This document shows, piece after piece, positions 18,872-27,311 of a stretch of DNA of 27,311 nt. Position numbers and translations under genes: made by a program. Source of the DNA: a virus (Duplodnaviria; Caudoviricetes); IMG/VR virus record IMGVR_UViG_3300049173_000058, positions 1 through 27,311 of that record; one strand, 5' to 3'. Positions within the stretch are counted from its first letter, which is position 1; every line of letters begins with the position of its first letter. Below the pieces are notes generated by a model. It was not told the DNA's origin. It saw only the letters and a list, made by a program, of their open reading frames with translations, and ran no database searches.

Positions 18872-19102
18872 ATGGACTTTCTGAAGAAGCACCCTGCCCG
18901 CGTCTACTCGCTGGTGGTGGCCGCCCTCGGCCTGGCCGCCGCGTTCGGCGTCGAGGTACCCGAAGCGCAGATTCTCGGCGCGGTCGGCGCCGTCCTGGCG
19001 CTCATCTCTGGCGAGGCGGTTCAGCGCGTCGAGGACTCGAAGACCCGTGACGCTCTCCTCACCCCGTCGCCTGCCCATGGCGGCCTGGCCGACGAAGGCT
19101 AG
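18872..19102 (+). CDS. Holin (two TM helices)
   Basis: Two hydrophobic helices; follows the endolysin; SD AAGGA (alternative ATG at 18869). Confidence 0.8.
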   Translation: MDFLKKHPARVYSLVVAALGLAAAFGVEVPEAQILGAVGAVLALISGEAVQRVEDSKTRDALLTPSPAHGGLADEG

Positions 19103-19156
19103 CTAGGGCGGGGCCGTGAATGCCTCCCACGGCCCTTCAGCACGTCCTAGCCGAAT

Positions 19157-19190
19157 CCCCCTGCACCCTTCCCGGGTGTGGGGGGCTTTC
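19157..19190 (+). terminator. Terminator ending the late operon (between convergent genes)
   Basis: CCCCCTGCACCC-TTCCC-GGGTGTGGGGGG then CTTTC. Confidence 0.7.
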
Positions 19191-19207
19191 GTCGTTTCCC
19201 GGGCCGT

Positions 19208-20539
19208 TTACACGCCTGCGGGCTTCATGCTCTCGGAGCGCTCGAACAGCTCGGCGGCCCCGTGGTGGCGAAGGTGGGGCCGGATGAGTTGGCGCATGGT
19301 CGCGAAGCGCTGATCGGCTCGGCCCGAGCGGACTAGCGGGAAGTCGTCAAGGGCGGCATGCCAGGTCTTCAGGGCCTCTTCGAGGTGCCCGACCTGAAGT
19401 TGCCGTTCGGCGAGTAGTGCGCGCATGCGCACGTTGCCTCGGCGGTACACGGCGAAGCGAAGCCTGTTGCTCTCCTGTAGCGCTTCGATCGATCCGTGAA
19501 CGTCGCCGAGTTCGTAACGCACTTGCGCTACGTGGTAGTTGAGCGCGGCGGGATCGTAGGACCCGAGCGGCTTCCCTCGGCTCTCGGCCCTGTCCATGGC
19601 GGCTTCGGCTTCCCGCATGTACCGCAGTGCGGCCGTACGGTTCCCGTCCTGGGCGGCGGAGTGTGCTTGCTGCCCCTTCAGGAAGGCCAGCATGCGCGGG
19701 CCGGCCTTCGGGGATGCTGCGGCGGCGGCCTCGGCCAGGCGCAACGCGTCGGGGCCGTGCCCGAGGTCGACGGCCTGAACGCTCATCCCTCGAAGCGTGG
19801 TGCAGTAGGTCAGGTGGTCGTCGGCGGACCCGGCCAGTTCGAGGGCCTTCGTGTAGTAGTCCTGTGCCAGGCCGTGAAGCCCTTCGTCTACGGCCATGTA
19901 CCCCGTGAGGTAGCAGAGGTCAGAGGCGGCGGACATCATCGCTTTCCGCACGTCCTCGGGGGCCTCGGCCCGAAGGTACGGGACAACGGTGTTCACCAGG
20001 AATGACGCGGCCATGGGGCGCGCGGTACGGCCCCCGAATTGGTCGTCAAGCTCAGAGACCTTCTCGGTCATCTGAACAACCATGTCGACTTCCCCGAAGC
20101 CGTACTTCAGTCCTCGGCCCTTCTTCACGGCCTCGGCTCGACCAACGACGTCGGGCCACCCCGGAATCGTGAGCGCGACGGAGTAGAGGCCCACCCCGAG
20201 GACGCTTCGGCGTGAGGGGTCCATGTCGGCCCGCCCGAGGTCTATCAGCCCTTCCACGGTGCCCGGGGTCGGTGTGCTGCCCTTCGGGGCCGGTAGGCCG
20301 GCCTCGGCGTGCGTGACCTGCCTTCCGAGGCGACGCGAGAGAGCTTCGAGGATCAGCGGTCGGACCTTCGGCACGGGGGTTGTGCCCCCGAGCCACTTAC
20401 TGACGTTGCTCTTGTCGGCCCGGACGGACACCCCGGCTTCGTCGCCTGCCCGGTTTAAGGCCGTGGCGAGCTGTCCAAGGGTCCAGTCCGCTTCGCCGAG
20501 AAGGCGGCTCAGTCCCTCGTTCGGCTCCCGCTCGGCCAT
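19208..20539 (-). CDS. Streptomyces-type XRE-HTH/TPR regulator (NsdA-like architecture)
   Basis: N-terminal PN..L..LL.EA.W...QLA...VSKWL.G..P HTH; central D.SRRS.LG; LDDQFGG; helical repeat C-terminus; SD GGGGG. Confidence 0.8.
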   Translation of the reverse strand: MAEREPNEGLSRLLGEADWTLGQLATALNRAGDEAGVSVRADKSNVSKWLGGTTPVPKVRPLILEALSRRLGRQVTHAEAGLPAPKGSTPTPGTVEGLIDLGRADMDPSRRSVLGVGLYSVALTIPGWPDVVGRAEAVKKGRGLKYGFGEVDMVVQMTEKVSELDDQFGGRTARPMAASFLVNTVVPYLRAEAPEDVRKAMMSAASDLCYLTGYMAVDEGLHGLAQDYYTKALELAGSADDHLTYCTTLRGMSVQAVDLGHGPDALRLAEAAAAASPKAGPRMLAFLKGQQAHSAAQDGNRTAALRYMREAEAAMDRAESRGKPLGSYDPAALNYHVAQVRYELGDVHGSIEALQESNRLRFAVYRRGNVRMRALLAERQLQVGHLEEALKTWHAALDDFPLVRSGRADQRFATMRQLIRPHLRHHGAAELFERSESMKPAGV

Positions 20540-20550
20540 GCCTACCCCCG

Positions 20551-20588
20551 AACTTTCCACGCTTTCAACTCTGCCCAACTCCCCAAAG
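20551..20588. repeat. Degenerate ~10-nt tandem repeats in the divergent promoter region
   Basis: AACTTTCCAC GCTTTCAACT CTGCCCAACT CCCCAAAG. Confidence 0.4.
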
Positions 20589-20648
20589 GTACCGCCGCGG
20601 GCTACGGCGCGGTTGCGTAGAGCGACAACGTCAGCGAGAGGACAGACC

Positions 20649-21014
20649 ATGCCGGGGAATCAGGTAGAGCGCGTGAGCAGCGTCGATGCGCCGTTGGATG
20701 TGGAGACGATGACGGACACCATCGACATGGTGCTGTCGATGCAACTCAGCACGTCGACCCGCGCGGACATCGACGGGCGGACGGGCCGCGCCGTGGGATT
20801 CCTGAACTTGCTCCTGGCCGAGAGCGTCGACCAGGAAGACGAAGACACGGCCGCGATCGTGCGACAGGCTCACCGGTTCTTGGAGCTGTCCGGCCGGCCG
20901 ACCGAGCGGACGCCCGTGTTCGAGGCGTTCCGCTTCATGGTGGACACGGCGAAGCTCTCGAAGGCTCTCCTCTCGGCCTACGCGCAGAGGAACGGAATCG
21001 ACCTGCGAAGGTGA
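20649..21014 (+). CDS. Hypothetical helical protein (weakly DUF6415-like)
   Basis: ATG after the GTCAGCGAGAGGA leader/SD; PLDVETM motif; divergent from the regulator. Confidence 0.7.
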   Translation: MPGNQVERVSSVDAPLDVETMTDTIDMVLSMQLSTSTRADIDGRTGRAVGFLNLLLAESVDQEDEDTAAIVRQAHRFLELSGRPTERTPVFEAFRFMVDTAKLSKALLSAYAQRNGIDLRR

Positions 21015-21256
21015 CCGTCGCACCTGAGAGCCCGAAGAAGCGGGCAGGCCGCACGGGCTACACCGGGGGGTGGCGGCGTCCCACCCTGATCGAGTGGATG
21101 AACGACAACGGCACCATCTGTGCATCGTGCTTCGGGCACCGGACGGTTTGGTGTCCCGACTGTGCAGGGTTCGGCGGCTGCACGACGTGCAAGCACACGG
21201 AGAAGGTTCGGTGCCCCCAGTGCGCGGGCGGAACGCTCGACGGGTGGCGCTGGTGA
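21011..21256 (+). CDS. DnaJ-type zinc-finger small protein
   Basis: Four CxxC(xG) repeats; GTGA-coupled. Confidence 0.75.
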   Translation: MTVAPESPKKRAGRTGYTGGWRRPTLIEWMNDNGTICASCFGHRTVWCPDCAGFGGCTTCKHTEKVRCPQCAGGTLDGWRW

Positions 21257-21297
21257 CTCCCTTCCGTCCGTCCCCCCGTAGCGGATGGCAGGGAAAC

Positions 21298-21329
21298 GAG
21301 AAGGGGCGACCCGTGGGCCGCCCCTTCTC
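21298..21329. terminator. Bidirectional terminator hairpin
   Basis: GAGAAGGGGCG...CGCCCCTTCTC between convergent genes. Confidence 0.75.
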
Positions 21330-21334
21330 TCCGC

Positions 21335-21688
21335 TCAGGCTCCGAGGAACCCGTTCCGTCTCATGTACTGCTTTCGCGTCAGCTCGATGCCGGTACGGGC
21401 GTCCGGCCCGTGCTTCTCGATCATCTGCTGAATCGTCATCCCGAAGGTGTTCCGGAAGTAGTCCGGGAACCAACTCTCGTAAGCGGCCTTCCGGTTCAGG
21501 TAGGTGTTAATCCCGTTCCTGATCCGGGCCACGGTCGTACGGGCCTTCCGGGCCGCGCACGACGTTCCCGCCCACAGCTGGTCACCCTCGGCCGTTTCGA
21601 GAAGGACGGTGCGCTTCAGCTCTTCCTTCCCGCAGACCTCACAGGTGTTGCACTCGTCGGTGATGGCTCGGATGTGCCAGGCCGCCAT
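21335..21688 (-). CDS. Hypothetical zinc-binding protein
   Basis: CEVCGK.ELKRTV...GTSCAAR; own promoter and SD. Confidence 0.8.
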   Translation of the reverse strand: MAAWHIRAITDECNTCEVCGKEELKRTVLLETAEGDQLWAGTSCAARKARTTVARIRNGINTYLNRKAAYESWFPDYFRNTFGMTIQQMIEKHGPDARTGIELTRKQYMRRNGFLGA

Positions 21689-21724
21689 GTCTTGCCCCTT
21701 TGCCGTTCCTCGCTGACATGTGGA

Positions 21725-21754
21725 ACTCTACGGCGTTTAAACCGAGTGTGTCAA
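21725..21754 (-). promoter_or_regulatory. SigA/HrdB-type promoter TTGACA-N18-TAGAGT
   Basis: Consensus match; GTCAGCGAG begins 7 nt after the -10. Confidence 0.85.
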
Positions 21755-21771
21755 ATAGTAGCTTCAGGGGA

Positions 21772-21800
21772 AACGAAGAAGGGGCCGGTTTCCCGGCCCC
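21772..21800 (-). terminator. Intrinsic terminator
   Basis: GGGGCCGG stem, then TTCTTCGTT on the minus strand. Confidence 0.75.
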
Positions 21801-21809
21801 TCGGTTTCG

Positions 21810-21992
21810 CTAGGCGTTCTGAACCTCTCGGCACCGGTCGCACGCACAGTGCGCGTCATGTAGGGCGGTGCAGAAGTCGCTAGCGGGGGTGTCTCCCGTG
21901 TCGAGGACGGTTCCGCAGCATCGGCAGAACGTCAGGTTCTCCTCGCAGAAGTGCACCCATCGGTGAATCCCCTTGCGGAGCGAAACGGCCAT
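21810..21992 (-). CDS. Small Cys/His-rich (zinc-finger) protein, 60 aa
   Basis: SD GAAGGGAAGG; H..VHFC, CRCC, HCACDRC. Confidence 0.75.
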   Translation of the reverse strand: MAVSLRKGIHRWVHFCEENLTFCRCCGTVLDTGDTPASDFCTALHDAHCACDRCREVQNA

Positions 21993-22047
21993 TGGCCTTC
22001 CCTTCATCCGGCCCCCGGTTGGGGGCCTTCTCTCGCTGACAAGGAAG

Positions 22048-22076
22048 ACGGTAGCACCGTTTAAACGAGATTCCAA
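22048..22076 (-). promoter_or_regulatory. Promoter TTGGAA-N17-TACCGT
   Basis: Spacing and downstream leader motif. Confidence 0.75.
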
Positions 22077-22092
22077 ATCATAGCTTTGAGGT

Positions 22093-22121
22093 AAAGGGAA
22101 AGGGCCGGATCGTCCGGCCCT
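22093..22121 (-). terminator. Intrinsic terminator
   Basis: AGGGCCGG/CCGGCCCT stem, then TTCCCTTT on the minus strand. Confidence 0.7.
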
Positions 22122-22124
22122 CGG

Positions 22125-22427
22125 TCACTCCTCGGTCAGTCCCTTAGCGTGCTCCCACTCGGCGACCTGCCACGCGTCCACGCGGACCACGGTCACGCCC
22201 CATCCGCCTTCGCTGTACGCGTCGCGCACGGTTCGGCCGGCAGTGGCCGCCACGTCGAACAGGGTCGGTACGCGCACGGTCATGGTCCACTCGGTCCACC
22301 CGTCGCCCATCTGTGCCGTGGCCCCGTAGTCGACCAGGGCGCCGGTAACGGCGTCGAGGGTGTCGTCAGTCTCGGCCAGGTTCTTTCCCTGGTGCCTCAC
22401 TCGCACTACGGCCTGATACTCGCGCAT
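22125..22427 (-). CDS. Hypothetical protein, candidate antitoxin partner of the HicA-like ORF
   Basis: 100 aa, alpha/beta pattern, directly downstream of the HicA-like gene. Confidence 0.7.
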   Translation of the reverse strand: MREYQAVVRVRHQGKNLAETDDTLDAVTGALVDYGATAQMGDGWTEWTMTVRVPTLFDVAATAGRTVRDAYSEGGWGVTVVRVDAWQVAEWEHAKGLTEE

Positions 22428-22461
22428 CGTGTAAACCTTCTTCTCTCGCTGACACGGTGAA

Positions 22462-22483
22462 GGGGGCCGGTCTCCCGGCCCCC
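22462..22483 (-). terminator. Hairpin between the HicA-like gene and its partner (weak terminator or processing stem)
   Basis: GGGGGCCGG/CCGGCCCCC; only TTC follows on the minus strand. Confidence 0.55.
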
Positions 22484-22493
22484 GTTGGGGAGG

Positions 22494-22691
22494 TTACAGA
22501 ACCCCGAACCTCTTCGCTACGGCCTCATTGTTTCTCTGGCCCCTGCCCCCGGTGTTTCTGCTGATCCACTCGGCAGGCTTCGTCTTGTCGTCCGGGAAGC
22601 AAAGCCATCCGTGATTGCGGCGCTCAACCTTGTATCCGGCGGCCTTGATTGCCTCTGCCAGACCTTCCGGAGTCCGGTTCACCTTTGCCAT
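22494..22691 (-). CDS. HicA-like (dsRBD-fold) small basic protein
   Basis: 65 aa; AIKAAGYKVERRNHGW.CFP.DKTKP...RN....KRFGV resembles actinobacterial HicA-like toxins. Confidence 0.6.
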   Translation of the reverse strand: MAKVNRTPEGLAEAIKAAGYKVERRNHGWLCFPDDKTKPAEWISRNTGGRGQRNNEAVAKRFGVL

Positions 22692-22732
22692 CGATCGCCC
22701 CTCCCTGTGTGTCTCTCTCGCTGACAGGTGAG

Positions 22733-22761
22733 ACGTTACTAGTATTTGGAATCTCTGTCTA
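22733..22761 (-). promoter_or_regulatory. Promoter TAGACA-N17-TAACGT
   Basis: Spacing, operator-like motif in the spacer, downstream leader. Confidence 0.75.
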
Positions 22762-23320
22762 CCCGCTCAGGTGGGTTGTTGTTGCCGTTGTCTTTCGTCT
22801 TTGCCTTACCCCATGCCTCGGGTGCCCTGAGCGGGCGGGAGCGGGTTGGACCCCCCCTTGAAGCAAGCAATAGGCCCCCCACTGCTGGAGGTTGCTCACT
22901 TCAAGAGGGGACCTAGGGGAGTCGACTACGTACCTCGGTACGCCCGTCGGGGCTCTCGCTTTCAGGACCGGTATGGAGGGAATTAGCCTCACCGCAGGGC
23001 CGGGAAGTGTGATCAGAGCTAGGGGCCGCACGCCCGTCCCCTCTGCGGGGACACCGGTCCGGGCCTGCCTTCACCCGGTACGTCTGTCACTCGGTATGCC
23101 GTTCCCTCTCGGGCTTCTCTACCTCCCGGTGGCTGAATCCGGGGTCGGCTTTTGGTGAGGAGAGCCGTTCTCTTACTCCTGACTGTCTGGACTCCCCAGG
23201 GCGTCAACCTGGGGCCGCAGGAACGGTTTCCGGGGCCGTTCTCCCTTGGCATGTCGTCTCCCTCGGGTGCCATCCCTCGGGCCGTCGTGCGCGGCCACGG
23301 CCAAGATCACGCCGTGCGCC
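22762..23320 (-). ncRNA. Candidate large structured non-coding RNA (~560 nt)
   Basis: Own promoter, no convincing ORF, many nested helices including a 20-bp stem with four G-U pairs that form only on the minus strand. Confidence 0.55.
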
Positions 23321-23324
23321 ACGG

Positions 23325-23354
23325 ACGTTACTGTGATTTGGACTAGACGCGCAA
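23325..23354 (-). promoter_or_regulatory. Promoter TTGCGC-N18-TAACGT driving the non-coding region
   Basis: Same -35/-10 hexamers as the 25030-25058 promoter. Confidence 0.8.
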
Positions 23355-23564
23355 GCTAGACTTGGGGTGATCAAGGCCACGCGTTTACACGGTTCCAAAA
23401 CACAGCATGGGGACAGGCTTCGCCACGCCCAGGGCCGAGAGGCCGGCGAAGAGGCCGCGGGGCCCCCGTGCGCCCCGTACAGGGCCGTGCAGGGTGAGCG
23501 CGGGCATGGAGAAGGCCCCCGCCGGGACGGGGGCCGTAGGGGGCTCTCAGGGGCTCGACAGGCC

Positions 23565-23593
23565 AACGACAAAGGCCCCGCCGAAGCGGGGCC
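23565..23593 (-). terminator. Intrinsic terminator after lsr2 (second hairpin at 23514-23535)
   Basis: GGCCCCGC-TTCG-GCGGGGCC then TTTGTCGTT. Confidence 0.8.
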
Positions 23594-23614
23594 GTGGTCG
23601 AGCTGGTAGCGCGG

Positions 23615-23947
23615 TTACGCGGCCTGAGCCTTCTCGTACGCCTCACGGAGGGACGCGGGCACGCGGCCCCGGTCGCTCACCTCATAGCCGTTCTCGCGCG
23701 CCCATTCCCGGATGGCCTGAGAGTCGTCCTTCGGCTTCCCGGTGCCCATGCGGCGGACCGTCGCGCGGCCCCCGCCCACCTTCCGGCCCCCACCGACGTA
23801 CGGGGCCAGGACGTCACGCAGCTTCTCGGCGTTCGCGTCGGACAGGTCGATTTCGTAGGTCTTCCCGTCGAGGGCGAAGAGAACGGTCTGAGTGGCCTCG
23901 GAACCGTCGATGTCATCGACCAGGGTGATTTCGACCTTCTGAGCCAT
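23615..23947 (-). CDS. lsr2: Lsr2 nucleoid-associated protein (possible longer start at GTG 24085)
   Basis: MAQKV...LVDDIDG, YEIDLS..NA.KLR, IREWARENGYEVSDRGRVP; SD AAGGA. Confidence 0.95.
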   Translation of the reverse strand: MAQKVEITLVDDIDGSEATQTVLFALDGKTYEIDLSDANAEKLRDVLAPYVGGGRKVGGGRATVRRMGTGKPKDDSQAIREWARENGYEVSDRGRVPASLREAYEKAQAA

Positions 23948-24081
23948 GGTGTTTTCCTTCTTCGGGAAGAGTTCGATTACGTTGGATCTTTTACCAGCGT
24001 GGCAGTTACAGCCACAAGCGATTCCGCTTAGCGTGCGGACGGGGCACCGCTGGTGATGCCCCGTCATGCACCACCCGAGCT

Positions 24082-24735
24082 TCACGGGCTGACCAGCTCC
24101 CCGCTGTGAGCCTTCGCGAAGGCCCGAATCACGGCCTCGGGGATGCGCCCGGTGTCCTTCACGTTGAAGCCGTTCTGACGCCCCCAAGTGCGAATGATCG
24201 CACTAGAATCCGTGGCCGCCGAGATAGCGGGAGCCTTCTCGACCGAGGCCGCGAAGATGGGGGCCTGAACCGCCGGGGGCTCCCAGGCCGGCCAGGGGTC
24301 ATCCGACAGGGCCTCTTCGAGGGCCTGGCCGTGGTCGGCGACCAGCTCGACCAGCTCGGCCGCCACGGGCTCACGCTTCTTCAGAAGGTGCGTGAACAGG
24401 TGGACGGCCAGGGGTACCGCGACACTCGGCACGCCGAGGACAACGGGCCCGGGAACGGTGTCCGGAAGGGCGTTGCTCCACAGGCTGTACGCGAAGAACA
24501 GTCCGGCCAGGGTCCACGGGTAGGCCGTGGCCTTCCATCCCCAGTCACGAAGCCGGTAGGCCACCCATACGGCGACCGTCACGAAGCCTTCGACTATCAG
24601 GGGGTAGATCGGGGACAGGTCGACGTTCCCGCCGGTACCGAGGTATACGGACCGAAGAGCCTCATAGGAGAGGGTGAAGGCACCGGCCGCGATTCCCGCG
24701 ACTACGGCGGCGGCGGTCCTGTCGGTCTTCTGCAC
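24082..24735 (-). CDS. DUF2637-like membrane protein fused to an Lsr2 DNA-binding domain
   Basis: AF.LSY.AL, YPLIVEG, SL.SN, VP.VA..L..HL over four TM segments; C-terminal IRTWGRQNGFNVKDTGRIP. Confidence 0.8.
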   Translation of the reverse strand: MQKTDRTAAAVVAGIAAGAFTLSYEALRSVYLGTGGNVDLSPIYPLIVEGFVTVAVWVAYRLRDWGWKATAYPWTLAGLFFAYSLWSNALPDTVPGPVVLGVPSVAVPLAVHLFTHLLKKREPVAAELVELVADHGQALEEALSDDPWPAWEPPAVQAPIFAASVEKAPAISAATDSSAIIRTWGRQNGFNVKDTGRIPEAVIRAFAKAHSGELVSP

Positions 24736-24779
24736 TGGATTCCCTTCCGGCCCGAAGGCCGTTTCTCGCTGACATTGGG

Positions 24780-24809
24780 AACCTAGCACTTAGTAAGATC
24801 GCGTTTCAA
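24780..24809 (-). promoter_or_regulatory. Promoter TTGAAA-N18-TAGGTT
   Basis: Consensus match plus downstream leader. Confidence 0.8.
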
Positions 24810-24831
24810 GTCTAGCTTCGAATCGGAACGA

Positions 24832-24858
24832 GAAAAGGCCCCCCTTCCGGGGGGCCTT
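24832..24858 (-). terminator. Intrinsic terminator
   Basis: AAGGCCCCCC/GGGGGGCCTT stem ending in TTTTC on the minus strand. Confidence 0.75.
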
Positions 24859-24862
24859 CCCG

Positions 24863-24970
24863 CTACTTCTCTACCTTCACCCACTCGAAGCGGTGGGCGG
24901 TGTGAATGTCGCCGTCGCAGCTCTTGTGCCACTTGCAGACGAGCTTGAAACGCGGGTCTCCGAAGTGCAT
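24863..24970 (-). CDS. 35-aa microprotein (MHFGDPRFKLVCKWHKSCDGDIHTAHRFEWVKVEK), not in the ORF track
   Basis: SD GAAGGGGAAG; own promoter, leader and terminator. Confidence 0.7.
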   Translation of the reverse strand: MHFGDPRFKLVCKWHKSCDGDIHTAHRFEWVKVEK

Positions 24971-25029
24971 TTCTCTTCCCCTTCAGTCTCGCACCGGGCT
25001 TTTCCCGGTGTCTCTCGCTGACAAGGAAG

Positions 25030-25058
25030 ACGTTACTATCATTTGGAATCGGGCGCAA
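25030..25058 (-). promoter_or_regulatory. Promoter TTGCGC-N17-TAACGT
   Basis: Consensus spacing, operator-like motif in the spacer, leader. Confidence 0.8.
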
Positions 25059-25060
25059 GT

Positions 25061-25342
25061 TTAAACGCGCTCGTCTTTCGGGCGGAGTGTGATCCGGACT
25101 CGGCCCACGACGACCGACCAGGGAAGGCCGCCCTTAACCGTCGCGTGCCCCTCGGCGAGCATGAGTTCCCGGGCTTCTGTCGCGTTGCTCAACAACACGG
25201 CGTCTTCGATGCCGCTCAGGGCGGCGCGCTCTCGAATGCGCGCGATGGAGCGATCTAGGGCTTCAGCCGCTCCGGTGGTGTCGCCCACGTCCTCACCGGC
25301 CGAGGCGATTCCGTCGACCTCCCAGAGCATCCAGAGAGCCAT
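25061..25342 (-). CDS. Hypothetical protein (93 aa), probably leaderless
   Basis: No SD; TACGCT lies 6 nt upstream of the ATG; follows a terminator. Confidence 0.65.
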   Translation of the reverse strand: MALWMLWEVDGIASAGEDVGDTTGAAEALDRSIARIRERAALSGIEDAVLLSNATEARELMLAEGHATVKGGLPWSVVVGRVRITLRPKDERV

Positions 25343-25387
25343 AGGGGAAGCGTAGGCTGGTCCGGCCGGCCAGGCATCCGGGCAACG

Positions 25388-25412
25388 CAAAAGCGGCCCC
25401 CGAAGGGGCCGC
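25388..25412 (-). terminator. Intrinsic terminator
   Basis: GCGGCCCC-TTCG-GGGGCCGC then TTTTG. Confidence 0.8.
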
Positions 25413-25423
25413 CGTGGCGCGGG

Positions 25424-26086
25424 TCAGGCTATTTCCATCACGGTCCCGAAGGGGCAGACCGGCATCCCCACTTCGAGCCACTTCGCCGTGGTGCGGACCA
25501 CGTACCCGCCGCACTCGCACTTCGAGTTGCAGGCAACCTTGATCATGCGGGTTCCCTGCTTCTTCGGTCCGGACGAAGTCGGGGGCTCTTCCGGGGTCTC
25601 CTCGGGGTCTTCCGGCTTCGGCTCTTCCTTCGGCTGAATCGGCTTACCCATCGGGTACAGGGTGGCGTGATCGTAAGGGCCGATCTTCTTCGCCAGTTCG
25701 GCCAGCTTCTCCGTCAGTTCGGGGGTGGCTACCGTCGCGGTCATCTTGCCCGTGAGGCCGAGGGCCTTAGCGGCCTTCGCGAAGGCCCCCTTGTGGCCGC
25801 TCTTGCAGTCATCGGCCGCGTGCACCAGTTCGTGAATCAGAACGTCGAGAACGCGGGCTTCTTCCTTCAGTTCGGGGCTGATGAAGATGTGGTTCACGTC
25901 GTCCTCGGAGACGCGGCGCGCCCAGCACTGGCCGAGGATCTTTCCGTTCTCGCGCTTCGAGCCGTAGCCGAATCCGACCGAGACGTGAATCTTCTCCGGA
26001 AGGGGGAACTCGACCTTCTCGAACTCGGGGCGAAGAGCCTCGATCGCCAGGTGAAGCCACTCTTCGCGGGTGATGGTCTGAGCCAT
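25424..26086 (-). CDS. SprT-like HExxH metallopeptidase with C-terminal zinc ribbon
   Basis: LGQCW, IFISP, LIHELVHA....GHKG.F; C-terminal C..CECGGY...CP. Confidence 0.85.
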   Translation of the reverse strand: MAQTITREEWLHLAIEALRPEFEKVEFPLPEKIHVSVGFGYGSKRENGKILGQCWARRVSEDDVNHIFISPELKEEARVLDVLIHELVHAADDCKSGHKGAFAKAAKALGLTGKMTATVATPELTEKLAELAKKIGPYDHATLYPMGKPIQPKEEPKPEDPEETPEEPPTSSGPKKQGTRMIKVACNSKCECGGYVVRTTAKWLEVGMPVCPFGTVMEIA

Positions 26087-26142
26087 TTTCGTTCCCCTTC
26101 TCTATCCGGCCGGGCTTTCCGGCCGTCTCGCTGACAAGAAGA

Positions 26143-26171
26143 ACGTTACTGTGATTTGGAATCTGCGTCAA
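26143..26171 (-). promoter_or_regulatory. Promoter TTGACG-N17-TAACGT
   Basis: Near-consensus, operator-like motif in the spacer, leader. Confidence 0.85.
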
Positions 26172-26212
26172 GTGTTTAAACGGGCTGGTTCAAGTGATAG
26201 CATCAGGGCATA

Positions 26213-26243
26213 CAAAAACGGCCCCCGCCGAAGCGGGGGCCGT
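26213..26243 (-). terminator. Intrinsic terminator
   Basis: ACGGCCCCCGC-TTCG-GCGGGGGCCGT then TTTTG. Confidence 0.85.
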
Positions 26244-26287
26244 CTGCACCGACCTTCGATCGTGTCAGCGAGAGAAGGGGAAGGTGC
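26214..26287 (-). ncRNA. Candidate ~74-nt antisense sRNA complementary to the conserved early-gene leader and SD
   Basis: TACACT -10 at 26300-26295, G 7 nt later, hairpin GCACC...GGTGC enclosing TTCCCCTTCTCTCGCTGACACG, then a terminator. Confidence 0.6.
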
Positions 26288-26306
26288 GAGATTGAGTGTA
26301 CGGGAA

Positions 26307-26729
26307 TCAGGGTGGCGGAAGCCATTCACCCTGGGGCCAGACCACGCGGCCTATGCGGGCCGCCCGGATCAGCGTCCGGCAGCTCGGGCACGGCTCGCGC
26401 GTCACGTACAGGGTGGCCCCCTGGCGGTGCTCCCTGGGGGTGAGGCGGACGCAATTCCGCTCCGCATGGTCAGCCGTACAGTTCGAGTAATCCGAGTTCG
26501 GCGGGCACTCCTCGGCCGTCATGCGGCCCCGAGGGCAGGCACCAGCGGACAGGCAACCGGGCACGCCCGGCGGCGGGCCGTTGTACCCGGCGCCCACCTG
26601 AGTAGGCAGGCCGGCCAGAGGCTTGACCATGACCGCGCCCACCTGGGCGCGGGTGCAGTCCCCGCGTGCGCTCACGGCCTGGGCGATTCCGAGGAAGTAC
26701 ACATCCCAGGTAGGCCGCGGGTCACTCAC
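26307..26729 (-). CDS. Deoxycytidylate (dCMP) deaminase
   Basis: RPTWD.YFL.IA..V..R.DC.R.QVGA, GYNG, HAERN, PCPSC. Confidence 0.93.
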   Translation of the reverse strand: MSDPRPTWDVYFLGIAQAVSARGDCTRAQVGAVMVKPLAGLPTQVGAGYNGPPPGVPGCLSAGACPRGRMTAEECPPNSDYSNCTADHAERNCVRLTPREHRQGATLYVTREPCPSCRTLIRAARIGRVVWPQGEWLPPP

Positions 26730-26877
26730 TGGCGGCCCCTCGGGCCATGTCGCGCACGATGGCGAACGCCTGGGCGTCCGTGAAGCCCGCGCCCTTCAGG
26801 GCCTCGAAGTACGAGTGAAGGGCGGTAGCGGCCGCGATCAGGTCAGCGGCCACGCTGAAGGGGCTCTTCGTCGTCAA
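26722..26877 (-). CDS. Small helical hypothetical protein (51 aa)
   Basis: TTG after SD AGGAG; Y..L..AGFT..QA..IV motif common in phage ORFs. Confidence 0.7.
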   Translation of the reverse strand: MTTKSPFSVAADLIAAATALHSYFEALKGAGFTDAQAFAIVRDMARGAASE

Positions 26878-27238
26878 GGAATCTCCTGGTCTCGATCCCT
26901 GCCTTCTCGGCAAGAACGGCGGTCATGGACGCCCCTCGGCTTCCGTCGAGGATGAAGGCCAGGCACACATCAGGGCCGTCTTCGATCATCAGGGCGTTTC
27001 GCAGGTACCCGGCACGCTTGCCGTGGCGGTCCCAATTCGCGGGGTAGCGCACACGGTGCATGCCGGTCTCTACGGCGTACGTGTCGGCCAGGGCATCCGC
27101 CCCTGTGGGGCAGGCTCCATGCATCAACACGGCTTCATGGAAAGGCGTCTTGTGCTCATACAAAGCCCGGAAGATCTCAAGTTCGATCTTCCGGGCGTCG
27201 GTCCAGTCGCGTGAACCGGTGACGAGAACCTTCAGCAC
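26843..27238 (-). CDS. SLOG / YspA-like (DUF2493) protein
   Basis: KVLVTGSRDW, HGAC.TGAD.LA, PANW..HGK.AG..RN..M, AF....SRG. Confidence 0.9.
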   Translation of the reverse strand: MLKVLVTGSRDWTDARKIELEIFRALYEHKTPFHEAVLMHGACPTGADALADTYAVETGMHRVRYPANWDRHGKRAGYLRNALMIEDGPDVCLAFILDGSRGASMTAVLAEKAGIETRRFLDDEEPLQRGR

Positions 27239-27311
27239 GACCAGTCGTCGTCATCCACGTACACGGGGACGGGAACAACCGTGGTCGAGTGGCCGCCGCT
27301 CGGCGGACGAG
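27232..27311 (-). CDS. 3' end of an upstream gene (partial; ...GGHSTTVVPVPVYVDDDDWSC)
   Basis: Open frame whose TGA falls just inside the start of the SLOG gene; truncated by the window edge. Confidence 0.45.
   Translation of the reverse strand, partial: RPPSGGHSTTVVPVPVYVDDDDWSC

Follow-up and report, generated by a model that had tools for sequence, protein, structure and literature searches.

A short motif that heads the messages of small phage genes occurs once in inverted orientation, at position 26264 of the DNA analyzed here (the window, 27,311 nucleotides in full length), raising the question of whether this copy is one more leader or the antisense part of a separate RNA. The 27.3-kb window is part of a temperate-type Streptomyces siphovirus. 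Its plus strand carries the terminase, portal, capsid, tape measure and lysin genes, with genes for tRNA-Phe(GAA) (1482-1555) and tRNA-His(GTG) (1611-1684) on the same strand before the terminase. Beyond the structural genes lies a block of small minus-strand cassettes (Lsr2, DUF2637-Lsr2, SprT-like and several unknowns), and then the tail of an operon whose final gene encodes a dCMP deaminase. No transposase was identified among the 37 window ORFs scanned. With at most one mismatch, TCTCGCTGAC occurs 12 times in the window (3.28 expected), a number reached in 0 of 100 shuffles, and all nine exact copies of GTCAGCGAG fall within 20.6-26.3 kb. Seven of these head minus-strand leaders, one heads the plus-strand gene at 20649 and one lies at 26264. 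Because the plus-strand copy at 20630 is the sense leader of gene 20649, the copy at 26264 is the only one antisense to local transcription, in agreement with an earlier note on this DNA, which had claimed that its inverted orientation is unique.

The inverted copy lies in a minus-strand unit that spans about 26214-26324 including its promoter. A weak -35-like hexamer, TGGCTT (26319-26324), is separated by an 18-bp spacer from the -10 box TACACT (26295-26300). A CCGCCA box (26313-26318) stands 12 nt before the -10, within the last codons of the dCMP deaminase gene (26307-26729, minus strand; stop at 26307-26309), which is an upstream neighbor only and is not counted as part of the element. Seven nucleotides lie between the -10 box and GCACC at 26287. 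With a start placed by inference at 26287-26288, the predicted sRNA is ~74-75 nt long (26214-26287) and comprises an antisense stem-loop (26246-26287) and an intrinsic terminator (26214-26242), the latter with a 10-bp G+C stem and a cUUCGg loop (hairpin 26242-26219) followed by a U run (26218-26214). The bases are as the note had described them, with TACACT, 7 nt, the motif and a U-tailed terminator after the dCMP deaminase stop. This terminator would end the upstream operon as well. The region 19000-27311 gave no Rfam match at E ≤ 1, and ARAGORN did not call the element as a tRNA, its fold being a single stem-loop plus terminator.

The predicted fold of 26208-26287, terminator hairpin included, has an energy of -45.4 kcal/mol (z -6.2). 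Its outer stem pairs GCACC (26287-26283) with GGUGC (26250-26246), and its inner stem pairs CCUUC (26278-26274) with GAAGG (26257-26253). Only two segments are predicted to be open across 20 homologues, the tip loop CUGACA (26268-26263; unpaired probability 0.84-0.99) and the internal loop UUCC (26282-26279; 0.67-0.85), while CCUUC stays largely bound to GAAGG (mean unpaired probability 0.15-0.23). The pairing of the GCACC/GGUGC ends had thus been recognized correctly, but the accompanying claim that most of CCCUUCUCUCGCUGACACG is exposed does not hold. The inverted motif copy CTCGCTGAC (26272-26264) belongs to a longer antisense arm, CCUUCCCCUUCUCUCGCUGAC (26264-26284), in which an anti-SD part is joined to an anti-tag part. 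In other words, the 5' arm of the sRNA is the complement of tag plus SD with the intervening spacer taken out, and the tip loop is complementary to the start of the GUCAGCGAG tag. The tip loop also contains CUGA, which fits the YUNR pattern (PMC4737173), four letters that carry little weight.

To what extent is this unit conserved? A first pattern scan yielded eight contigs; as these had been chosen by the motif, loci were re-collected through the neighboring SprT protein. The inverted copy was present just before the first tagged leader in 20 of 20 examined loci with SprT identity of at least 59%. One locus (L077) was dropped as a duplicate of L049, and the 19 distinct relatives together with the window form the 20 loci of all later counts. 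Thus, the search of leader-bearing relatives that the note had called for found the inverted copy in 19 of 19 distinct phages or prophages, which keep the sRNA unit whatever gene stands upstream. The dCMP deaminase gene takes that place in only 7 of 20 loci, indicating that the sRNA is an independent gene that is not bound to this neighbor; a 3' UTR of the deaminase gene was rejected as a requirement. Processing of the sRNA from a dCMP deaminase read-through transcript is possible.

Among more distant loci, a counterpart was found in L089 and L091 (near-duplicates, SprT 51%), which keep the design, and in L088 (58%); L052, L053 and L090 (50-58%) have neither tag array nor sRNA. When the search was widened via the metallophosphoesterase, no new contig reached the sRNA. 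The relatives of the window phage are uncultured contigs and prophages of named Streptomyces genomes; nine such genomes contain the prophage, among them S. cucumeris NEAU-Y11 and S. antimicrobicus SMC 277. A close cultured relative was looked for and none was found. With the sRNA element as query, cultured phages gave only terminator-sized matches among the 30 of 90 listed, and the right arms of Marky and Ponzi are without the tag.

In a stem alignment of 18 copies (L085 and L087 were omitted for their longer terminators), 94.7% of cells are paired, compared with at most 59% in slid controls. Double-sided changes occupy 18 cells, all in the outer stem, compared with 6.4 in shuffles (0 of 500 reach 18). 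Since the outer stem exists in about five variants (GCACC/GGUGC, GUUCC/GGAAC, GCAUC/GAUGC, CGGC/GCCG and GGUCCC/GGGGCC) that do not cluster on the SprT tree, these cells would reflect a handful of events reshuffled by recombination and not 18 separate ones. G-U pairs outnumber A-C pairs by 14 to 3, which favors the minus strand, as does the U run on this strand. Moreover, a -10 of its own precedes the element in 20 of 20 loci (TAnnnT 21-24 nt from the core, 29 nt in one), and a TAnnnT placed for the plus strand was found in 0 of 20. On this ground the copy was rejected as a plus-strand sense leader, an alternative that the note itself had raised.

One might still suppose that the element is a relic of a past inverted duplication of a leader, which has since traveled with the terminator. 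The leader at 22453 does resemble the element read backwards over at least 17 nt, scoring only 21 bits with the covariance model, but the unit is kept in all clade members while flanking genes change, and it shows compensatory changes and fixed promoter spacing; we consider a relic extremely unlikely. The 22453 copy was also considered as a second sRNA gene and rejected, as it has no conserved -10, no U tail and a model score of 21 bits; it was treated as a target. Judged from sequence, the inverted copy thus lies in a real, conserved and probably functional phage sRNA gene, and the in-silico tests aimed at refutation support the antisense-sRNA reading.

Eight window messages begin with the GUCAGCGAG tag or, in the case of the 22453 copy, carry it internally. 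The tagged cassettes share a design: a consensus host-type promoter with an operator-like motif, then GUCAGCGAG(A/G)n, a hairpin or short spacer, GAAGGG(G)AA and the start codon. On the minus strand, the leader of the SprT-like gene (25424-26086) at 26087-26135 contains the tag, a hairpin and AGAGAAGGGGAA (predicted ddG of pairing with the sRNA -16.8). The same order is found before the 35-aa gene starting at 24970 (leader 24971-25022, ending in GAAGGGGAAG; -17.0), the DUF2637/Lsr2-domain gene starting at 24735 (24736-24773, GGAAGGGAA; -12.0) and the gene starting at 21992 (21993-22040, GAAGGGAAGG; -11.1); a hairpin between motif and SD had indeed been noted for four window leaders. Also on this strand are the leaders of the 65-aa gene 22494-22691 (22692-22725; -18.4) and of gene 21335-21688 (21689-21717; -12.3). 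The internal tag (22428-22453), which lacks a promoter, directly follows a G+C hairpin and is fused to the SD of gene 22125-22427 (17-nt match; -18.9). On the plus strand, the sense tag leader of the gene starting at 20649 occupies 20630-20648 (-13.1). This 121-aa gene (20649-21014) is divergent from a 443-aa regulator-like gene (PHROG 10886; 19208-20539, minus strand), which looks like cargo because the repressor of the relatives sits elsewhere. The leader of the PHROG 10886 gene is tagged too in L005/L079 and L048.

Exact matches between the inverted copy and the leaders measure 17 nt (22440-22456), 16 nt (22026-22041), 13, 13, 11, 11, 11 and 10 nt; the longest was as previously given, and the second had been put at 15 nt. 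The pairing prediction proposed in the note separated the eight leaders (ddG -11.1 to -18.9) from 20 other gene starts in the window (0 to -4.2).

Downstream of the sRNA and on its strand, the 20 loci together hold 137 tags, 1 to 12 per locus as limited by contig ends. TAnnnT stands 6-8 nt before the tag in 122 of these leaders, so that the tag would be the transcript start, while 15 are without a promoter. In the 127 leaders that could be parsed, tag and SD are separated by a hairpin of -5 kcal/mol or stronger in 81 cases and by at most 7 nt in 35. A predicted ddG of -8 or lower was obtained for 129 of the 137 leaders, compared with 10 of 200 control SD-ATG windows. The predicted duplex covers the SD in 103 of the 127 parsed leaders, often with the hairpin looped out. 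The real anti-SD arm outscored a C/U-swapped arm in 120 of 137 leaders, and AAGGG precedes 48 of 76 tagged but 21 of 325 untagged ORFs. A motif-blind search returned 144 promoter-like sites with an operator-like or GTTTA(A/C)AC motif, and 115 of them start at most one mismatch from GTCAGCGAGA. In 11 of 20 loci, opposite-strand cargo genes that differ between loci are tagged too.

The tag extends to replication genes. In the relatives, the whiB-led replication operon is also headed by it, and most whiB leaders carry it (15 of 18), here ~90 nt before the gene and with weaker predicted pairing (-6.5 to -17.2). In L048 the upstream operon encodes a repressor, a WhiB-like protein, an exonuclease, DnaB, RusA, a primase, a metallophosphoesterase and a sigma factor. 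The tag is absent from primase (0 of 23) and post-sigma transcripts (0 of 15), and the exact tag was found in 0 of the 11 repressor upstream regions shown.

The window also contains an ORF-free stretch of ~550 nt (about 22770-23322, minus strand) that follows a promoter with an operator (TAACGT near 23330) and is conserved across 13 loci. Its promoter is of the same class as those of the cassettes, and in 13 of 13 loci the transcript is without the tag; thus, the tag marks messages for translation and not the promoter class itself. Changes on both sides occur in 22 of 111 predicted pairs and no Rfam match was found. The stretch appears to encode a large structured non-coding RNA, and its location resembles that of the ~500-bp Pleft non-coding transcript in cluster A mycobacteriophages (PMC5712189). 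A role as sponge for the sRNA was rejected, as no consistent pairing site was present.

Covariation between sRNA and targets is thin because the 9-nt core is almost invariant. The changes in near-match tags are G-U compatible in 10 of 13 cases, with 8 falling at an edge position. One case is clear: in L086 the same A-to-U change appears as GAUAGGG in the sRNA complement and in one of 11 leaders, that of SprT. In only 6 of 20 loci was the cognate sRNA the top-ranking one for the leader adjacent to it. Most L088 tags have the sequence GUCAGCAAG, and the inverted loop of this locus has CUUGCUGAC, so that a G-to-A change in the tag is mirrored in the loop; the anti-SD tract of this sRNA is on the other arm. 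By loop-only energy the L088 tags pair better with their own loop (-19.2) than with the window loop (-14.4), but whole-RNA energies show no preference for its own leaders (-9.0 vs -9.3). When viral sequences were scanned for the CTTGCTGAC variant, the 36 matches (32-55% G+C) were unrelated.

Could the tag instead act at the DNA level, as a protein site or favored initial sequence, with the inverted copy serving as a DNA site or roadblock before the terminator? The tag sits at +1 of most promoters, and cluster A mycobacteriophages use oriented DNA sites (PMC5712189). Moreover, a looser pattern of promoter plus GTCAGCRRG occurs in 72 of 401 Streptomyces genomes (9 control matches), and tRNA genes account for 5 of the 11 examples retrieved. 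In L329-L332 and L339, the 8-nt leader GUCAGCAG follows a TAnnnT box before host tRNA-Lys(CTT) genes, and one tRNA-Ile gene starts with GUCAGCGAG; some non-tRNA loci (L334, L336, L337, L340) start likewise. Given this shared start, part of the tag may be a promoter-start preference, with its first bases derived from a favored start sequence. However, the exact pattern of -10 plus tag is confined to phage DNA (in five host genomes, 33 of its 34 matches fall in the prophage), and a separate operator-like motif is already present. A DNA element also leaves the covarying stem, the G-U strand bias and the conserved -10 unexplained, and does not account for an inverted copy that equals tag plus SD minus a hairpin of 0-32 nt. 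We therefore regard it as very improbable.

The reading that we favor, and hold to be fairly probable, is that a separately promoted, conserved stem-loop sRNA shuts off translation of the phage's own early accessory genes via their 5' tag and ribosome-binding site. In a first step, the open tip loop CUGAC(A) would capture the free 5' end of the message. With the open UUCC loop assisting, this pairing would unzip the inner CCUUC/GAAGG stem, so that the anti-SD arm is freed by strand invasion and is not exposed beforehand. The freed arm would cover the SD with the leader hairpin looped out, ribosomes would be excluded, and decay may follow. Counting against this reading are the thin sRNA-target covariation, the small number of stem events, the similar starts of host tRNA genes and an orphan homologue in a host chromosome, described below.

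The sRNA might also pair with the leaders to a different main effect, such as decay, premature termination (as with P4 CI) or shielding and stabilization of the 5' end. Tags of the 22453 type, internal, promoter-less and after a terminator-like hairpin, would fit such an outcome, as would the 15 of 137 tags without a -10 and the whiB tags, ~90 nt from the gene and more weakly paired (-6.5 to -17.2). In addition, in-cell probing of RNA-IN/OUT gave no clear protection of the ribosome-binding site, according to the available part of PMC4737173. On the other hand, the predicted duplex includes the SD in the great majority of parsed leaders (103 of 127), and the SD is otherwise fairly open (mean unpaired probability 0.61), a combination that fits blocking and not activation. 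We consider a main effect other than ribosome exclusion unlikely.

When would the sRNA be made? Its promoter, with a weak -35, the CCGCCA box and the 18-bp spacer, resembles other promoters of these phages. The box with its spacing is found in 16 of 20 sRNA promoters, 11 of 12 whiB promoters and 1 of 122 tagged accessory promoters, a pattern built on the sRNA and whiB classes and, like the operator pattern, tuned by eye on the same loci. It matched 53 times in the 20 loci, compared with 2.55 in shuffles, and also recognized promoters before the primase gene, downstream of the sigma gene and at one other upstream gene. A distinct class, TTGAnn-CCGCCA-N12-(T/G)AnnnT, comprises four replication-region promoters and that of the sRNA (L048 1191-1227, 5386, 7936; window 26313-26318). 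To look for a shared late or phage-sigma promoter, the window was searched with a matrix built from the sRNA promoter; no other site scored high (13.9 at best vs 30.9), though the window may lack the late promoter. The CCGCCA-box promoters may resemble T4 middle promoters, and the phage WhiB-like protein is one candidate reader of the box.

The second element is an operator-like motif of the CTAnnATTTG class, seen in the SprT promoter at 26149-26161 and, in similar form, at 22739, 23331, 25036, 22083, 21761, 6343 and 10242. Asymmetric, stoperator-like sites of this type also lie in the late region and right after terminators (6343, 10242, 26200). Separately, GTTTAAAC palindromes recur in the accessory promoters (window 22035-26185), and GTTTACAC is found at starts in distant actinophage loci. 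The operator-like motif accompanies 107 of 137 tagged leaders but 0 of 20 sRNA promoters; among box promoters in 27 loci (L161 overlaps L080) the counts are 53 of 59 for non-sRNA and 0 of 16 for sRNA promoters. From these patterns we infer that the sRNA is co-regulated with replication genes yet lies outside repressor control. It would rise when the replication-operon promoters fire, because its promoter has their box, and would persist in the lysogen, because this promoter is without the operator. During infection the sRNA would brake the first-wave cassettes and the tagged whiB leader as the replication promoters fire, sparing the untagged primase, post-sigma and repressor messages; in the lysogen it would soak up leaky transcripts.

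Alternatively, the sRNA could be mainly an outward-facing immunity factor, silencing early messages of incoming related phages that share the tag but have different operators. The operator-like motif is missing from all 20 sRNA promoters and differs in L074, L085, L087 and L088, while the tag is nearly fixed, and non-cognate sRNAs pair about as well as cognate ones. Furthermore, an orphan copy exists in a host chromosome: a complete homologue with loop CUUGCUGAC and a score of 61 bits (G041:C16:42497-42574; L338 9498-9578), with no tagged leader or related phage gene within 19 kb. A further match, in G177, was discarded because it sits inside coding sequence. However, a single genome out of 401 searched has the orphan. 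The tag is retained in the genes of the phage itself, so that a benefit to self is needed, and the sRNA promoter combines a weak -35 with a box also found in lytic promoters. A mainly outward role thus appears quite unlikely. A broader and still doubtful version would be an RNA address system, in which unrelated cargo genes join the regulon by acquiring a 9-nt tag at the 5' end together with a fitting ribosome site, and one repressor-independent RNA silences all of them; the prophage copy, having the lytic CCGCCA box and no operator, could then be switched on by the activator of an invading relative, silencing the invader's early genes across immunity groups.

How does translational shut-off by this sRNA relate to known systems? 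RNA-OUT of IS10/Tn10 overlaps, and is encoded opposite, its single target, a transposase message. As described in PMC4737173, it is likewise a ~70-nt hairpin whose loop captures an unstructured message 5' end, the duplex reaching over the ribosome-binding site. Unlike RNA-OUT, the phage sRNA lies away from its targets, which number up to 12 per locus, and would have to bulge out a leader hairpin that varies among them. By prediction, its loop is complementary to the extreme 5' end of its targets (starts taken from -10 spacing) and the SD is covered in 103 of 127 leaders; it has no Rfam match, a separate locus and eight window targets. By analogy, the sRNA would work like RNA-OUT, but in trans on a regulon.

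C4-type RNAs are tRNA-like cloverleaves, and the Rfam C4 models gave no match. The c4 RNA of P1/P7 (PMC12197685) and CI of the satellite P4 (PMC4825925) are also small trans-acting phage antisense RNAs with loop-borne pairing, two-part recognition and a link to lysogeny or immunity. Each acts on one operon (ant and the P4 replication genes, respectively), and P4 CI is processed from its target transcript and causes termination. The phage sRNA, by contrast, is flanked by a promoter and a terminator of its own, is not predicted to fold as a cloverleaf and would serve a regulon dispersed over multiple promoters. Two loop-borne segments, the tip loop and the internal loop, are open by prediction; the targets are dispersed cassettes and not a flanking antirepressor or immunity operon, none being annotated as antirepressor and several being unannotated. 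P22 sar and lambda OOP, phage RNAs of 68-77 nt, similarly repress a phage gene post-transcriptionally on top of a protein repressor, but have one target each, reached via overlapping sequence (PMC12197685). More generally, the available part of this 2025 review has sar, OOP, aQ, c4 and STnc6030 each controlling one phage gene or operon.

Among actinophages, the SAS/ESAS elements of cluster K mycobacteriophages and cluster EF Microbacterium phages likewise pair an unusually conserved motif at the ribosome site of some genes with another conserved element farther upstream, and the available part of PMC7302621 names no antisense partner. A conserved motif at the ribosome site of a gene subset is found here as well (AAGGG, 48 of 76 vs 21 of 325), but the sequences differ (the GGGAAAGGACCCC type consensus is not matched) and the second element is the transcript 5' end. 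The PHROG 357 repressor of the relatives presumably resembles L5 gp71. As in the L5 system (PMC5712189), the relatives combine a repressor with many asymmetric operator-like sites. Stoperators of the L5 type are repressor-bound asymmetric sites that overlap promoters in one orientation. The tag lies downstream of the -10, and it is the separate CTAnnATTTG motif, not GUCAGCGAG, that would fit an operator role.

A search of the open-licence literature, which takes in the lesser part of the subscription journals, returned no description of this sRNA-tag system. Loop-to-5'-end antisense control is itself already known; what appears to differ is its regulon-wide trans form. Our analysis points to one predicted sRNA that would control as many as twelve scattered phage genes via a purpose-built leader, alongside a protein repressor. 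If true, early genes of phages in Streptomyces would be subject to an RNA-based timer or lock. Such a system would also give the unexplained conserved start motifs (SAS) of actinophages a testable function, with an inverted copy as the partner to look for, and would provide a compact repressor-tag pair ready for Streptomyces engineering.
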